A stretch of DNA of 64,000 bases from Pseudomonadota bacterium. Lineage in GTDB: Bacteria > Pseudomonadota > Alphaproteobacteria > Rhizobiales > Aestuariivirgaceae. Where the stretch lies: the NCBI GenBank assembly GCA_020161855.1, contig JAIUNJ010000009.1:47644-111643 (forward strand). The letters run 5' to 3'. The notes beneath the pieces were generated by a model. That model saw only the letters and a program-made list of their open reading frames with translations. It did no database searches and was not told the origin of the DNA. A program made the position numbers and the translations under genes. Shown here in pieces: positions 35,057-40,343 of this stretch (position 1 is its first letter; each line of letters begins with the position of its first letter).

Positions 35057-36868
35057 TCACGTCAGGATCGTCAGGTCCCCTCCGGCGAGGTTGATCGTGT
35101 TGATGGCCGAGACGTTGGACAGCTGCACCACCACGTCATTGGCGCTGGCCCCGGCCAGGCCATCCGAGATGAAGAGATAATAGGCACCCGCCTTGTTCAC
35201 CTTGAAGAAGGCGAACTCGCCGGCCTGCGTCCCGCCGGCGTTGATCCGCCCGGCAATGTCCTTGACGCAATCTGCCATCGTCGTGCCTGAGCCTGCCGCA
35301 AAGGTCGCAACGCCGTTGGCGGCTTTGATCGAGGCCTGCGATGCCGAGGCCCCGGCCGCCGTGCCGCCGACCTTGAGAGCGGCGGTGAAGTCGAACTTGT
35401 CACCCACATTGAGCGCGCCCTTCTGGTAGTCCTTCACCATGTCGAAAGCCGTGTAGGCCGAATCTCCCGCCGCGAACTTGAAGATATCGCGGCCCGTGCC
35501 GCCATAGAGCGTGTCCTTTCCCTTGCCGCCGGACAGCGTATCGCTGCCGCCGAGGCCGCCCAGGATGTTCATGCCCGCATTACCGGTGATCACCTGCCCC
35601 AGCAGATCGTTGCCGATGAGATTGATCGCCGCCGTGCCGCCGGGGTTCTCCGCCTGCATGATCTCGATGTGATCGTCGGCGTCGAGCGCGAAACTCTCGA
35701 AAGCCTTTACGCGGTCTGCCGTGCCGCCACCTGCATCCTCGATGATGATGTCCTCGCTCCTTACGAGGTAGGTGTCGTTGCCAATGCCGCCCTCAAGGAA
35801 ATCCGCTTCCGAATCCTGGCCTCCAAACAGGGTGTCGTCGCCCTCCCAACCCCACAGGATATTGATGGCGAAGTCACCGGAGAGCCAATCGTTGTAAAAG
35901 GACCCTTCAAGGTTCTCGAAGCCGGAAATCGTATCGACTCCGGCACCCAGCGTATCTTGCGGATCTGTGAAATCCAGATCGACCACGACGCGCGCTGGTG
36001 CAAAGTAGTAGCTGACCGTATCTCCCTGCGGACCGTGGCTGCCACCGGTGAGAAAGTCGTTGCCAGGCCCGCCGTGAATCAGGTCATCGCCATCGCCGCC
36101 ATCAAGAGAATCTTCTCCAGAATAGCCATCCAGAATGTCGTCGCCATCGCCGCCAAATGCGGTCTCTCCCGTATCCGGATCGTCGGCGCCGAAGTAGCTG
36201 TCCTCACCACCGCCGAGATAGACAACCCCAGCAATCACCCCGTTGTTATCGAAGATATCCGCCCCAGAACCAAGGACGATATCGCCCTCGATAAGTCCAT
36301 AGTTATTGAAATCGGAGGACGTATCTCCTTCCACGAATATAGCGACCCGGTCCTGACTGTTCGTGAAAATCTTTCCGGTGTTCCAGAAAGTAAGCACCGG
36401 CACGTCAACGAGATGAATGGCCCAGCTGCTGTGGCTGAAAATCACACCATCATTGTCGATCCCGACCTTTGCACCATTGATCTCGATCGCGCCACTTGTT
36501 CCAGCGGCTGCGTCCGTCGAAATCGAACCGCGATTGTTTACGTAGAAGAAGTTGTCATAGGGGCTGTCTTCAACTCTTATGGCGCCGAGATGTCCGGAGA
36601 TTGCACCGCCTGACAGCACGAACAGATTGTTGGTGCCTCCGGCTGGATTGCTGTTGTTGAAAACAAGCGCGGCGGAAGACGTGCCATATCCAAAGACCAT
36701 CCCGCTGATGTTCACCAGGTAGTCTATGCCCGTGCCACCAAACCGAAGCACTCCGCTCCCGGCGCTGCCGTAGACAAGCGCGTTCGCCTGAACCGTTACA
36801 TAGTCGGGTTGCGCTGTCGTAAACGCTGCTGGATTCTCTGTAACCGTACCGCTGAGAAAAACTGCCAT
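35057..36868 (-). CDS. RTX/hemolysin-type Ca-binding repeat protein (likely T1SS substrate or surface protein)
   Basis: GGxGxDxLx nonapeptides (GGDGDDILD, GGDGDDLIH, GGPGNDFLT, GGKGKDTLY, GGTGRDIFK); no N-terminal signal peptide; GGGGAG RBS before ATG 36868. Confidence 0.85.
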   Translation of the reverse strand: MAVFLSGTVTENPAAFTTAQPDYVTVQANALVYGSAGSGVLRFGGTGIDYLVNISGMVFGYGTSSAALVFNNSNPAGGTNNLFVLSGGAISGHLGAIRVEDSPYDNFFYVNNRGSISTDAAAGTSGAIEINGAKVGIDNDGVIFSHSSWAIHLVDVPVLTFWNTGKIFTNSQDRVAIFVEGDTSSDFNNYGLIEGDIVLGSGADIFDNNGVIAGVVYLGGGEDSYFGADDPDTGETAFGGDGDDILDGYSGEDSLDGGDGDDLIHGGPGNDFLTGGSHGPQGDTVSYYFAPARVVVDLDFTDPQDTLGAGVDTISGFENLEGSFYNDWLSGDFAINILWGWEGDDTLFGGQDSEADFLEGGIGNDTYLVRSEDIIIEDAGGGTADRVKAFESFALDADDHIEIMQAENPGGTAAINLIGNDLLGQVITGNAGMNILGGLGGSDTLSGGKGKDTLYGGTGRDIFKFAAGDSAYTAFDMVKDYQKGALNVGDKFDFTAALKVGGTAAGASASQASIKAANGVATFAAGSGTTMADCVKDIAGRINAGGTQAGEFAFFKVNKAGAYYLFISDGLAGASANDVVVQLSNVSAINTINLAGGDLTILT

Positions 36869-37015
36869 TGGTCTCCCCACTCACTGACGCCTATCAAAGG
36901 CACAACGTGACACACCCCCAACGTGCATCAACAAAAGCCTGCCTATTGCAGCGTTTACAGTCAATGGTGAATCTGAATGGCCTATGCACAACTTAAGAGT
37001 GCCGTTGATCAGCCC

Positions 37016-37474
37016 TCAGTAGCTGCGCCCCATGGCGCCATCCAGCGACAGGCGGCCCGGTCCCAGTGCGATCACGCCTGCTGCCATCGCCGCCCAGGTG
37101 ATGTGGATGGGCCAGCCCGTGGGGATCGTCAGCTGGATCAGGGCGGTCATCAGCAGGAGTCCGAGTCCGGAAAGCCGCGTGAACAGTCCGATCACCAGCA
37201 GCACCGGCAGGATCGTCTCGCCCAGCGCCGAAAGATAGGCCATCACCGCCGGGTAAGGGTAGTCATAGACCTTGCCGAAGACGTGCAGCTTGAATTCATC
37301 CGTGAACAGAAGAATATCGGTATCGTTGAGCTTGAGGAATCCATCCCACTTGGTGATGCCCGAGCGGAAGAAGGGCACGGCGAGGCCCACGCGCAGCGCC
37401 AGGCTCACCAGCCAATGGGGCAGAAGCCCCGCGCCCAGGTCTTCCAGCCTTCTCAGCAATGCAATCGGATTCAT
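37016..37474 (-). CDS. DoxX-family membrane protein (BufD-like)
   Basis: LRVGLAVPFFRSGITKW, ETILPVLLVIGLFTRLSGLGLL, GPGRLSLD. Confidence 0.85.
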   Translation of the reverse strand: MNPIALLRRLEDLGAGLLPHWLVSLALRVGLAVPFFRSGITKWDGFLKLNDTDILLFTDEFKLHVFGKVYDYPYPAVMAYLSALGETILPVLLVIGLFTRLSGLGLLLMTALIQLTIPTGWPIHITWAAMAAGVIALGPGRLSLDGAMGRSY

Positions 37475-38244
37475 GCCTCTTCCCCTGTCTTGATCCGCGT
37501 GAAGGCCCCGGCTTCGATCGCCAGCATCAGCGCTGCGCCAAGATCGAAGTCCACGTCCACCCGCGCGCCCTCTTCTGCCGCCAGGCCAAGAGTGGCACCG
37601 CAGCTCAGTGTGTTCAGGAAGGCAAATGTGCCGCCTGAAACGCGACGCACGTCGACCATGAGTCCGGGCCGCGACACAAGGCCAAACTCCGGCTGTGAAA
37701 GATCAAGCCCGTCGAGGCCCTCGCCCGTGCGGCTCCGCGCAAAGATCGAGACGACGGCAAACCTGCTGTTCATGAGCCGCATGGCCGGATGAGCCACGAA
37801 GCGGACAGAGCCCAGTTCATCCGCCGCCACCTGCGCCAGTGCTGAACCCGGCAGCGGCAGCGCGTCGGCTTCATGGAAGCTGTCGAGCCACAGGCGTTCC
37901 AGCCGCGCCACGTCCGCCAGATAGGGATAGGCGGCGAGTGCCGCATCGCCCTCGATCTCAGGGGCCAGATCGCGCCCGTATTCGAACAGCAGCTTGCTCA
38001 CCGGCGGGCAGCGCCGCACATGGTCGAGCGCCAGCGCCAGAAACGCCTCGCCGCCCAGCAACCGCCGCAACGCCGGGAAGTTCGCTTCCAGAGCCTCAAC
38101 GAGGCTCAAGGTCACATTGTTGCGATAGACGGCAAAGCGCTTGGGCAAATGCGCGCTGGCGCCTTCCGGCACCGGCAGGTCCGGCCGCAGCAGCGCCTGC
38201 GAGAAACTCCCGGCCAGCTGGGTCCAGTCAGCTTGCACGGGCAA
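37471..38244 (-). CDS. DUF2063 MNIO partner protein (BufC/HvfC-like)
   Basis: RFAVYRNNV...L..NFP...[17 protein letters not shown]; start codon overlaps the DUF692 stop. Confidence 0.85.
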
Positions 38245-39103
38245 GCTCCTGCTTCAACTGGCGCGCAACAATTCTGTCTGCCGCCGTGGCTTCCGCCTTG
38301 AGAACAGGCCAGGCCGGAACATCACCATCCCATTCGATGAGCGTTGGAATAGGCCCGGACGCGGCGATCACGTTTTCATAGAGCGTCCAGACGCCGTCCG
38401 AAACAGGCCGGTCGTGCGAGTCGATGAGCAGCGGCTCGCCGGCATCATCCCAGTCCATGTCATGCCCGGCCAGATGGATCTCGCGCACCCGGTCCATCGG
38501 GAAGCTGGCAAGATAGTCACCCGCGCTGCTGCCATGATTGGTCGCAGAAACGAAAACATTATTGAGGTCGAGCAGAAGCCCGCAGCCCGTGCGCCGGGCG
38601 AGCTCCGCAATGAAATCCGTCTCGCTCATGGTCGATTGCGCGAAGGCAACATAGGTGGAGGGATTCTCGAGCAGGATCGGGCGGCGCAATGTCTCCTGCA
38701 CTTCGTTGATATGCGCAGCGACGCGCTCCAGCGTCTCGCGCGTGTATGGCAGCGGCAGAAGGTCGTTGAAGTAAGTGCCGCCATGGCTGGACCAGGCGAG
38801 GTGCTCGGAAACAATCAGCGGCTCGTAGCGCTCCACCACGGCCTTGAGGCGCGACAGATGCAATTGATCGAGCGGCTGCGGCGCGCCGATGGAAAGCCCC
38901 ACGCCATGCACACAGAGCGGAAAGCGTTCCCGGATCCGGGTCAGCGCCGCATGTGGCGCGCCACCCTTCCCCATGTAGTTTTCGGCATGGACCTCGAAAA
39001 AGCCCACGGCGTCGCGATCATTCAGAATGTCGTCGACATGCTCGGCCTTCAGGCCCGCGCCTGCGCGCAAAGGGGAGTAAAATTGTGGAAAGTGCAGCGT
39101 CAT
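38228..39103 (-). CDS. DUF692 multinuclear non-heme iron oxidase (MNIO; BufB-like)
   Basis: [57 protein letters not shown]. Confidence 0.92.
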
Positions 39104-39234
39104 GGATTGCTCCCGGTGCCCGCTTAATGAAGTGCCCGGGCGAGGCCTGCGCGGGGTGGAGCCGCAAGTGGCAACTCCACCCTCGCGCCATTTGCGCGCC
39201 CTTCCTGCAAGGGAGGAAGAACGCCTGAGGCAGC

Positions 39235-39543
39235 TCAGGCCGGCAGGTCGCGGGTCAGCGGCTCAAGCGAGCCCTTGCGGCCGCCGTCGACATCCATCGA
39301 CATGCAGGTGCCCTTGTCGACATACTTCCAGGAATTGCCCTGATAGTTGATCGTGCTCGTGCCCTTACAGGTGGTTCCGGCGCCCGCGGCGCAGTCATTC
39401 TGGCCGGCCAGTGCCACGCCGAAGCACTTTTCCTTGTCGGCGGCGGCTGCCGTGTTCGAGGTTGCGATGGCCATCGCGGAAACGGCGGCGGTGACAGCGC
39501 TCGCCAGCATGGCAGCGGAAAAAGCGCGGCGTGTGGTGTTCAT
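39235..39543 (-). CDS. DUF2282 bufferin-type RiPP precursor (BufA1-like)
   Basis: Signal peptide then [15 protein letters not shown]...TTCKG...WKYVDKGTC (four Cys); GAGGAG RBS. Confidence 0.85.
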
Positions 39544-39683
39544 GGGTATCTCCTCTTTCGGTTTGCGGCTGATCTCCAGCCCGCATCCCGTGTCCCACGC
39601 ACCGGCCCGTTTGGGAAATAAACAGCCGCCGCAAACTGCTCACTTTGCCGTAAGGCAAGTCTCACCCGCGCCTCACGCCGCCG

Positions 39684-40343
39684 TTACAGCTTGCGCGCCA
39701 GCGTCAGGCCATCACCCAGTGGCAGCATGGCGATTTCGACGCGGGAATCCGCCAGCACCTTTTTGTTCAGCGCCTTCAGGGCAGCCGTGTCGGCGTCATT
39801 CTTTGCCGGGTCCGCCACGTCACCACCCCACAGCACATTGTCGATCATCACGAGCCCGCCCGCCCGCAGCAGCTTGAGCGCACCCTCATAGTAGCGGTCG
39901 TAGTTTTCCTTGTCGGCATCGATGAAGGCCAGGTCGAAGGTTCCGGCCTTCCCGGCCTTCAGCAGCTCGGCAATGCCATTTTCGCCACCGTCGAGCCTGA
40001 GCGTCACACGGTCCGCCACACCGGCTTTGGCCCAGAACGTGCGGGCAATCGCCGTGAACTTCTCGCTCACATCGAGCGTGGTGATCTCGCGGGCGCCTGC
40101 CAGCGCCATGGCGAGTGACGAGTAACCGGTGAAGCACCCGAACTCGACCACGCGCTGCGCGCCCGTGAGTTTCACCATGAGCGCCATGAAAGCCCCCTGC
40201 TCCGGCGCAATCTGCATCACGGCGTCGCCGCCGAGCTTGGCCGTGGCATCGCGCAGTTCTGCCAGGATGGCGGGCTCCCGGCCTGCATGGGCGCGATAGT
40301 AGTCATAGACGGCAGGCGTCAGGTTGAGGGTTGAACTGGCCAT
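39684..40343 (-). CDS. Class I SAM-dependent O-methyltransferase (caffeoyl-CoA OMT-like)
   Basis: MQIAPEQG, VVEFGCFTGYS, FDLAFIDADK, GGLVMIDNVLWGG, LPLGDGLTL; start placed at ATG 40343. Confidence 0.88.
   Translation of the reverse strand: MASSTLNLTPAVYDYYRAHAGREPAILAELRDATAKLGGDAVMQIAPEQGAFMALMVKLTGAQRVVEFGCFTGYSSLAMALAGAREITTLDVSEKFTAIARTFWAKAGVADRVTLRLDGGENGIAELLKAGKAGTFDLAFIDADKENYDRYYEGALKLLRAGGLVMIDNVLWGGDVADPAKNDADTAALKALNKKVLADSRVEIAMLPLGDGLTLARKL

Follow-up and report, generated by a model that had tools for sequence, protein, structure and literature searches.

A bufferin-type bufABCD operon in a small-genome member of the Hyphomicrobiales and its putative upstream control elements

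Does a four-gene cluster in a small genome of the Hyphomicrobiales encode a bufferin system, and what would control it when no sigma factor gene lies beside it? The cluster was studied in a 64,000-nt stretch of DNA (hereafter the window). An ORF check of positions 39543-37016 found four co-oriented genes on the minus strand, bufABCD. The first, bufA (39235-39543), encodes a 102-aa DUF2282 precursor, bufB (38228-39103) a 291-aa multinuclear non-haem iron oxidative enzyme (MNIO), bufC (37471-38244, TTG start) a 257-aa DUF2063 partner protein of the PME family, and bufD (37016-37474) a 152-aa DoxX-family membrane protein. An alternative in-frame GTG of bufC is present at 38238. The overlap between bufB and bufC is 17 nt (11 nt with the GTG start), a 4-nt overlap (ATGA) couples bufC and bufD translationally, and a 131-nt spacer separates bufA from bufB. 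These ORF coordinates agree with the first-pass annotation, which had described four co-oriented genes with the last three overlapping. The same gene content and order was found in all 80 operons of relatives (80/80), and a BufA homologue in 16 of 24 congeneric species.

On its 5′ side the operon is flanked by genes for an O-methyltransferase and a DUF2339 membrane protein, and on its 3′ side by a gene for an RTX-repeat protein. Domain annotation of these neighbours revealed no copper gene or copper sensor adjoining the operon. No adjoining sigma or anti-sigma gene was found either, as had been noted earlier for an ECF sigma/anti-sigma pair. The O-methyltransferase is unlikely to be a tailoring enzyme, as it stands beside buf only in the window and in two relatives (L017, L112), through synteny with DUF2339.

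BufA, the sole DUF2282 protein of the genome, matched the family model (PF10048) with 78.9 bits for a cut-off of 22.4. Its residues 1-35 (MNTTRRAFS..., approximately 39543-39439) constitute a predicted signal peptide, with a predicted cleavage between AAA and D, and its core (residues 36-102) carries Cys40, Cys51, Cys59 and Cys80, which are invariant among 60 aligned precursors. The four cysteines of the exported-type precursor claimed at first are thus present, and its signal peptide is predicted from the sequence. AlphaFold modelled the signal peptide as disordered and the core with a block-mean pLDDT of mostly 72-89. Neither a PDB sequence search with BufA nor a Foldseek comparison of its model with the PDB gave a match or a meaningful match, respectively. 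The metal-binding cysteines and the surrounding core are near-identical to the family consensus, and the core ending in ...GTC and the tail ...GSLEPLxRDLPA represent the majority form among 80 relatives, common among those within the Hyphomicrobiales. The suggestion that this core and tail were a candidate new variant must therefore be withdrawn.

Read from the sequence, the N-terminus of BufA comprises a positive n-region, an Ala-rich and weakly hydrophobic h-region, and the AAA-D site. Its TRRAF fits T-R-R-x-F of the Tat consensus, the pair of arginines is kept in the closest orthologues (TRRVF in L017, L112 and L113, TRRIF in L030, TRRTL in L115), and TatC is encoded in the genome. The same bufferin operon could thus have changed route in the clade of the window, the folded precursor being exported via Tat and not Sec, a possibility also fitting the weak hydrophobicity of the h-region. 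However, most other aligned homologues have K, T, S or a single R in place of RR, with the same h-region, and a few more-distant ones, for example L116 and L119 (MSTRS), have one R. Also, F is followed by S or N where a hydrophobic residue is usual, and the characterised BufA1 uses Sec, with disulfide formation and copper loading after export (PMC11626156). We consider a change of route quite unlikely.

The identity of the enzyme was well supported. BufB scored 359.8 bits against MbnB_TglH_ChrH (PF05114) and 387.3 bits against the NCBIfam MNIO_BufB equivalog NF050167, above its cut-off of 310, and it matched PDB 3BWW with E = 5.6e-44. Among 63 homologues, residues H66, H101, E146, D179, N181/N182, H210, D228, H230 and E257 show either invariance or a conservation of at least 95%, in accordance with the earlier reading of intact metal-ligand motifs. 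The ligands of sites 1 and 2, assigned by motif and from what is known of MbnB rather than by structure, are presumably among them. The conserved residues also include the equivalents of the site-3 residues N175, D242 and H244 of HvfB, mapped through the 3BWW alignment; these are essential in HvfB (PMC13419390). With 240 bits BufB also matches the HvfB model, and it has weak matches to those of MbnB, ApyH and ChrH, as would be expected if the locus were an MNIO system of another RiPP class, of the oxazolin/HvfABC, methanobactin, pearlin or chryseobasin type. Nevertheless, these matches all lie far under their cut-offs (360 for HvfB) while the BufB model was passed, and the precursor is a four-Cys DUF2282 protein and not an EGKCG-repeat or MbnA-type peptide. 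The family scores and the precursor together refute another class, to which we leave practically no chance.

BufC matched DUF2063 (PF09836) with 73.2 bits and has the C-terminal RRE-like domain which counts, in a DUF2063 partner, as a membership feature. A PDB sequence search with BufC gave no match. Its model (pLDDT 94) consists of an N-terminal helical domain and a C-terminal alpha/beta domain, and the best structural matches to it were TglHI (PDB 8HI7/8HCI) and NGO1945 (PDB 3DEE), with E = 1e-6 and a TM score of 0.60 for TglI (8HI7_A) and TM scores of 0.53/0.65 for NGO1945. These matches between models and structures support a role of BufC as MNIO partner, although TglHI catalyses beta-carbon excision on a different substrate and the sequence identity is only 13-19%. 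Finally, BufD matched DoxX (PF07681) with 53.9 bits and the HvfX family weakly, and shares 57-67% identity with the DoxX genes in the operons of most relatives. A DoxX gene is a frequent but non-obligatory core member of Buf1 clusters.

Every sequence and fold test run was consistent with the complete bufferin-type MNIO operon proposed at the outset. The closest characterised counterpart is buf1ABCD of Caulobacter vibrioides (CCNA_03363-03366 / CC3254-CC3257), which encodes bufferin 1 (PMC11626156): it contains the same four genes in the same order, with a DUF2282 precursor bearing a signal peptide and four cysteines, an MNIO, a DUF2063 partner and a DoxX protein, and its mature peptide has 68 residues against about 67 in the window. 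The Caulobacter system differs by its adjacent sigF-nrsF, a genomic NrsF and a GTAACC-N16-CGAA promoter, whereas the window presents a twin-arginine n-region in the signal peptide and a structured 131-nt bufA-bufB spacer. An orthologous operon with the same order is also known within the Hyphomicrobiales, SMb20530-SMb20527 of Sinorhizobium meliloti, in the RpoE7 (ECF16) regulon (PMC6180224). Its precursor type and tail are similar to those of the window, but it has a mapped TGTAAC-N17-CGAAT promoter and a divergent rpoE7-ecfR7 pair; the window belongs to the other regulatory class. The gig (gold-induced genes) operons of Cupriavidus metallidurans and Legionella pneumophila (PMC11626156; PMC5413113) are of the same four-gene family; they are metal-induced, occur in Beta- and Gammaproteobacteria and have different regulators. 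The oxazolin, fontiphorin and gonophorin systems (HvfABC, FonABC; PMC11252979, PMC13097082) share the pair of MNIO and DUF2063/PME1 protein, often with DoxX. In the EGKCG-repeat captophorins of HvfABC and FonABC, 5-thiooxazoles are installed and copper is bound (PMC11252979, PMC13097082), but these precursors are repeat peptides while that of the window is a folded four-Cys DUF2282 domain.

We conclude that the locus is very probably a Buf1-type bufferin (captophorin) operon native to this small-genome organism and acting as follows. The thiooxazole chemistry, export and copper function of bufferins have been described (PMC11626156; PMC12452194), and we infer each step from the characterised Caulobacter system. 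BufA would be synthesised as a 102-aa precursor, of which Cys51 and Cys59 would be turned into 5-thiooxazoles in the cytoplasm by the iron enzyme BufB with its partner BufC. The signal peptide would then drive export and be cleaved near D36, a Cys40-Cys80 disulfide would form in the periplasm, and the mature peptide of about 67 residues would fold around copper and buffer the surplus metal, BufD being perhaps a redox helper. By homology, the product should be a periplasmic thiooxazole copper-binding peptide, the copper specificity being extrapolated from Caulobacter. Two observations count against this reading: the orthologous operon of S. meliloti was not induced by H2O2, Cd or chromate (PMC6180224), and no copper genes adjoin the operon of the window.

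The same peptide could have a main role other than copper, in defence against oxidants or hypochlorite, with another thiophilic metal, or, jointly with DoxX, in redox homeostasis. A response of orthologous operons to gold, cadmium, chromate and further stresses, and in Bordetella to BvgAS, is on record (PMC11626156), and MerC-bufferin fusions hint at other metals (PMC12452194). The neighbourhood free of copper genes and sensors fits such a role too, as does the upstream array described below, which by our reading resembles a LysR/OxyR-type layout of four half-sites. Against it, copper is bound in an ordered way and a copper phenotype is seen in the sole direct biochemistry of DUF2282 peptides (PMC11626156; PMC13097082), and the consensus-like cysteines and core speak for the family function. 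A main role outside copper thus appears rather unlikely, and a copper-buffering peptide remains our preferred reading.

The second question concerns transcription. The GTAACC-N16-CGAA promoter of ECF16 sigma factors (PMC3511200) was not found upstream of bufA. The genome contains four sigma-70-family genes only, and no NrsF was found anywhere in the assembly, which is 92% complete; SigF/NrsF acting in trans on the operon is therefore unlikely. Judging from the sequence, transcription of this operon is thus unlikely to use SigF/NrsF. It had first been remarked that regulation might differ from that of Caulobacter or act in trans. The difference holds, given the missing NrsF and ECF16 promoter, while an action of SigF/NrsF in trans is improbable. 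Such a layout without sigma factor is one of the major bufferin layouts already described, and sigF-nrsF with the ECF16 promoter accompany some Buf1 clusters without defining the family (PMC12452194). Also, NrsF is missing altogether from about half of the relatives' genomes.

Other candidates were rejected. A TGTAAC over the methyltransferase stop codon is not an ECF16 -35 element, as no CGAA follows at N16-17 and it is not conserved in L017. We also rejected as trans factor a module of the same genome comprising an ECF, a small anti-sigma and Metal_resist (PF13801) (C1:198148-199688); PF13801 does not track the box class described below, being found in about 15 of 30 box genomes and 11 of 20 ECF16 genomes. 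An ECF/RskA pair (C2:12339-13588) was rejected as regulator for this lineage: RskA_C is present in 18/30 box genomes against 18/20 ECF16 genomes, and no shared promoter motif was seen.

The upstream regions of 81 related loci fell into two near-exclusive classes. The ECF16-class promoter TGTAAC-N17-CGAA occurs in NrsF-bearing genomes, and a TTGATTTCC box in NrsF-less genomes. The box was found in 36 of the 81 loci, 35 of them in NrsF-less genomes, and is mutually exclusive with the ECF16 promoter except at one locus, L026. Its stringent form is found roughly once in each genome. Of 19 genomes scanned, most matched the stringent core TTGATTTCC-N2-KTGA at the bufferin promoter only; in two of the 19 it also precedes an orphan DUF2282 gene. 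A second element, the strict dyad TCAC-N6-GTGA, occurred 43 times in the 81 upstream regions against once in the reversed-sequence control, at constant distances from the promoter or box. This palindrome was found in both classes, including SigF-dependent loci. Since the dyad is kept even in the latter, a second regulator of bufferin expression may be at work, possibly LysR/OxyR-like. A literature search for TTGATTTCC gave unrelated matches only, and an Rfam scan of positions 36800-39800 (E ≤ 1) only a chance match to a human cis-element. In the genome of the window, a search for TCACG-N4-CGTGA gave one match, inside a coding region. A search of that genome with a loose 9-mer of the box was uninformative. 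The promoter region was also rejected as a repeat element, being unique in the genome.

In the window, all three upstream elements, the dyad, the box and a third GTGA half-site, are weaker than in the nearest relatives. The near-palindrome TTAC-GGCAAA-GTGA (39640-39653, minus strand) is a one-mismatch copy of the dyad, of which L017, L030 and L112 have perfect copies, and TTTATTTCC (39614-39622, minus strand), 79 nt before the bufA ATG, is a degenerate copy of the box. The changes are TTAC for TCAC, TTTAT for TTGAT and the loss of the third GTGA half-site. Transcription would probably start about 55 nt before the ATG, 3′ of a conserved operator array made of the dyad and the box and standing here in a weakened form; expression could thus be low or differently controlled. 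Taken further, these degenerated elements might mean an operon intact in its genes but decaying or silent in its transcription. However, the four frames are open, the family-invariant residues are intact, and the genes have kept their translational coupling and strong ribosome-binding sites. Moreover, TTTATTTCC is common to the window, L017 and L112, and represents a clade variant rather than a private lesion, and transcription may run through from the co-oriented methyltransferase gene upstream. We regard a silent operon as highly unlikely. The operon is real, intact and ordinary, a further example of a well-catalogued and very widespread family, and is unusual only in that a conserved upstream motif takes the place of the sigma-factor switch known from the model system.

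Two structured regions frame bufA. In the presumed 5′ UTR, a leader hairpin (39559-39590, minus strand; MFE -17.5 kcal/mol) precedes AAAC and the Shine-Dalgarno GAGGAG (39555-39550). Among 34 box-class leaders, 33 have a helix of 5 bp or more in the corresponding position, and their stem sequences vary. The bufA-bufB spacer (39104-39234, minus strand) folds into about four hairpins, of which the first lies at the bufA stop codon, with a terminator-like stem at 39240-39223; its MFE is -74.2 kcal/mol (z = -2.2), and an equally good fold was reached by 4 of 200 shuffles. It is unique in the genome and was rejected as a repeat element. The gap in L017 measures about 57 nt from match coordinates only, so that the window spacer appears longer; the automated gap lengths in relatives being unreliable because of start-codon choice, only the spacer length of the window is reported. 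The strong bufA Shine-Dalgarno and the structured spacer suggest that the precursor is made in excess of the enzyme.

Taken together, these data lead us to a tentative joint reading, plausible but somewhat doubtful as a whole: two regulatory regimes for Hyphomicrobiales Buf1 operons, a second, dyad-linked regulator, and a possible shift to Tat in the clade of the window, whose precursors have a conserved twin-arginine motif. The first regime, already known, uses the SigF/NrsF (ECF16) promoter. The second may be an undescribed, NrsF-independent one which includes the window and may be marked by half-sites on one DNA face, TCAC-N6-GTGA, N7, TAAC-N6-TTGATTTCC, N2, GTGA.

Bufferins were described in 2024 and more than 21,000 captophorin precursors are catalogued (PMC13097082), so that the cluster itself adds little, and only the cis-elements merit following up. 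Roughly half of the relatives' genomes are devoid of SigF/NrsF and yet have sharply conserved upstream elements, near-exclusive to bufferin genes in their stringent form. The protein reading these elements would reveal the signal that induces bufferins in many soil, plant-associated and marine alphaproteobacteria, and its identification would also show whether this signal is copper.

The four co-oriented open reading frames are on the minus strand, at precisely the position given by the first-pass annotation: bufA (39543-39235, 102 aa), bufB (39103-38228, 291 aa), bufC (38244-37471, 257 aa, with a TTG start and an alternative in-frame GTG at 38238) and bufD (37474-37016, 152 aa). In the sequence, the overlap of bufB with bufC is 17 nt counted from the TTG or 11 nt from the GTG, bufC and bufD share an ATGA, and a strong ribosome-binding site (GAGGAG) stands 6 nt 5' of the bufA ATG. 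The GC content of the operon (0.63-0.66) was the same as that of its flanks and thus gave no sign of recent import. Directly upstream of bufA and co-oriented with it are genes for a DUF2339 membrane protein (897 aa) and a class I O-methyltransferase (PF01596; 39684-43143, minus strand). Both are also found at this place in the related locus L017, and the 3' end of the methyltransferase alone is visible in L112; they probably represent local synteny outside the cluster. Directly downstream of bufD, an RTX calcium-binding repeat protein of 607 aa is encoded (35057-36880, minus strand).

The assignment as a bufferin-type MNIO operon was upheld by matches to DUF2282, MNIO_BufB, DUF2063 and DoxX and by conservation of the cysteines and metal-motif residues. 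In Pfam, the bufA product scored 78.9 bits against DUF2282 (cut-off 22.4), the bufB product 359.8 bits against MbnB_TglH_ChrH, the bufC product 73.2 bits against DUF2063 and the bufD product 53.9 bits against DoxX. BufB also passed the NCBIfam equivalog MNIO_BufB (387.3 bits, cut-off 310) and fell far under the cut-offs of the HvfB, ApyH, MbnB and ChrH models. C40, C51, C59 and C80 of BufA were invariant in an alignment of 60 precursors, and the BufB metal-motif residues H66, H101, E146, D179, N181/182, H210, D228, H230 and E257 were invariant or at least 95% conserved among 63 homologues. Alignment to 3BWW mapped N181/182, D228 and H230 onto the site-3 residues of HvfB, which are essential in that enzyme (PMC13419390). 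A PDB sequence search with BufC gave no match; its AlphaFold model (pLDDT 94), with the expected N-terminal helical and C-terminal alpha/beta domains, matched the MNIO partners TglI (8HI7_A; E = 1e-6, TM 0.60) and NGO1945 (3DEE). The BufA model, with a core folded at reasonable confidence and a disordered putative signal peptide, had no neighbour among solved structures. The operon is real and intact, an ordinary cluster of the Buf1 bufferin type that Leprevost et al. (PMC11626156) defined and PMC12452194 surveyed; the 'captophorin' class of PMC13097082 covers it as well.

A scan of species-representative genomes yielded 586 relatives, the best 80 of which (BufB identity 62-69%, mostly Hyphomicrobiales) formed the comparison set. 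Within these best 80, bufA was always present, bufC adjoined bufB in all but one locus, which ends at a contig edge, and 45 carried the same DoxX family as the window. The proposal that the precursor core and C-terminal tail represent a candidate new variant was not borne out, as the precursor alignment showed both to be the majority form among relatives (tail consensus ...M.LPGGR.GSLEPL.RD.P.), several of which end exactly in RDLPA. The nearest syntenic relative, an Aestuariivirga MAG, has the same order of DUF2339, O-methyltransferase and bufABCD, with a BufA identity of 78-80%. A BufA homologue occurs in 16 of 24 other species of the window's own genus, and the exact proteins of the operon are already deposited in public collections.

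It had also been remarked that no sigma/anti-sigma pair is adjacent, so that regulation may differ. This was correct: genome search found no NrsF in the strain's own assembly (3.36 Mb, 92% complete), which holds one DUF2282 and one MNIO gene, and the ECF16 motif, GTAACC-N16-CGAA (PMC3511200) or TGTAAC-N17-CGAAT (PMC6180224), was not found upstream of bufA. The sigma-70 family is represented in this assembly by just four detected genes, RpoD-like and RpoH-like frames and two ECF-sized genes. Two ECF modules were noted there. One (G000:C2:11592-13588) encodes an ECF sigma, an RskA-type anti-sigma, a fasciclin (FAS1) protein and a cytochrome b561-like protein, recalling, in an alphaproteobacterial host, the mycobacterial SigK-RskA-Mpt70/83 cassette. 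The other (G000:C1:197668-199688) combines an exported EF-hand protein, an ECF sigma, a presumed anti-sigma of small size and a Metal_resist (PF13801) protein of the periplasm. It may serve as an envelope switch that responds to metal or calcium, and its occurrence does not follow the bufferin box class described below.

Comparison of 81 upstream regions revealed two nearly mutually exclusive classes, with either an ECF16 promoter (22 regions, about 80 nt before the ATG) or a TTGATTTCC box (36 loci, including the window). Whole-genome searches placed 21 of the 22 ECF16-promoter loci in NrsF-bearing genomes and 35 of the 36 box loci in NrsF-less ones, a split whose Fisher p overstates independence because the genomes are related. 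Both regimes are present within the window's own genus. In most loci the distance from the box to the ATG is 77-107 nt; outliers are at -131 and at -19/-28, the latter probably reflecting miscalled start codons. In 19 genomes the stringent box was unique or almost so; two of its five extra matches stood in front of orphan DUF2282 genes. Such genes in two Rhizobiaceae MAGs (L097:1501-1810, L098:1501-1850) carry a CTCTCACACAGGCTTGATTTCC..TTGAT box upstream, as in full operons. A literature search gave nothing on the TTGATTTCC box. Metal_resist and RskA_C were considered as clues to a trans factor reading it and set aside, since the occurrence of neither tracks the box class. On the Rhizobium sp. 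SYY.PMSO plasmid pSYY.PMSO-B (locus L007), an NrsF gene about 3 kb upstream of the operon (G004:C3:793822-794333) seems to be a pseudogene, since its matches are interrupted by in-frame TAA and TGA stops; bufA there still has its ECF16-type promoter, and the chromosome carries another, intact NrsF.

A TCAC-N6-GTG(A/T) palindrome had 43 occurrences in the 81 regions and a single one in the reversed control. Both classes have it, at a fixed offset of 24-25 nt before the ECF16 -35 or 32 nt before the box. Dyad and box (39614-39653 of the window, minus strand; seen upstream of Hyphomicrobiales buf1 operons among loci L003-L082) together place half-sites at 0, 10, 21, 31 and 42 nt in the box class, a layout that, in our reading, resembles LysR/OxyR-type operators. 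The array of the window is weaker at three points (TTAC for TCAC, TTTAT for TTGAT, last half-site lost), and its TTTAT variant is shared with L017 and L112. A leader hairpin 5' of bufA (39590-39559, minus strand) recurs in 33 of 34 box-class leaders with differing stem sequences. The 131-nt bufA-bufB spacer (39104-39234, minus strand), unique in its genome, folds into some four hairpins (-74.2 kcal/mol, z = -2.2). At about 57 nt, as judged by match coordinates, the spacer of the nearest relative, L017, appears shorter. Such structure may act by attenuating transcription or by making the bufA message more stable.

The putative BufA signal peptide starts MNTTRRAFS, with a twin-arginine-like TRRAF (codons T4-R5-R6, 39526-39534, minus strand). 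The closest orthologues (L017, L030, L112, L113, L115) retain the RR pair, which the wider family lacks. The genome encodes TatC, and the precursor could conceivably leave the cell through Tat; export in the characterised bufferin system is Sec-dependent (PMC11626156).

The operon is thus a further member of a well-described kind, and the cluster itself is of low interest; modest leads come from the conserved upstream elements, from the regime without NrsF and from the RR motif, none of which amounts to an established finding. By homology, BufB and BufC would act in the cytoplasm and turn Cys51 and Cys59 into 5-thiooxazoles, the precursor would then be exported and cleaved near AAA|D36, a Cys40-Cys80 disulfide would form, and the mature peptide of about 67 residues would bind copper in the periplasm.
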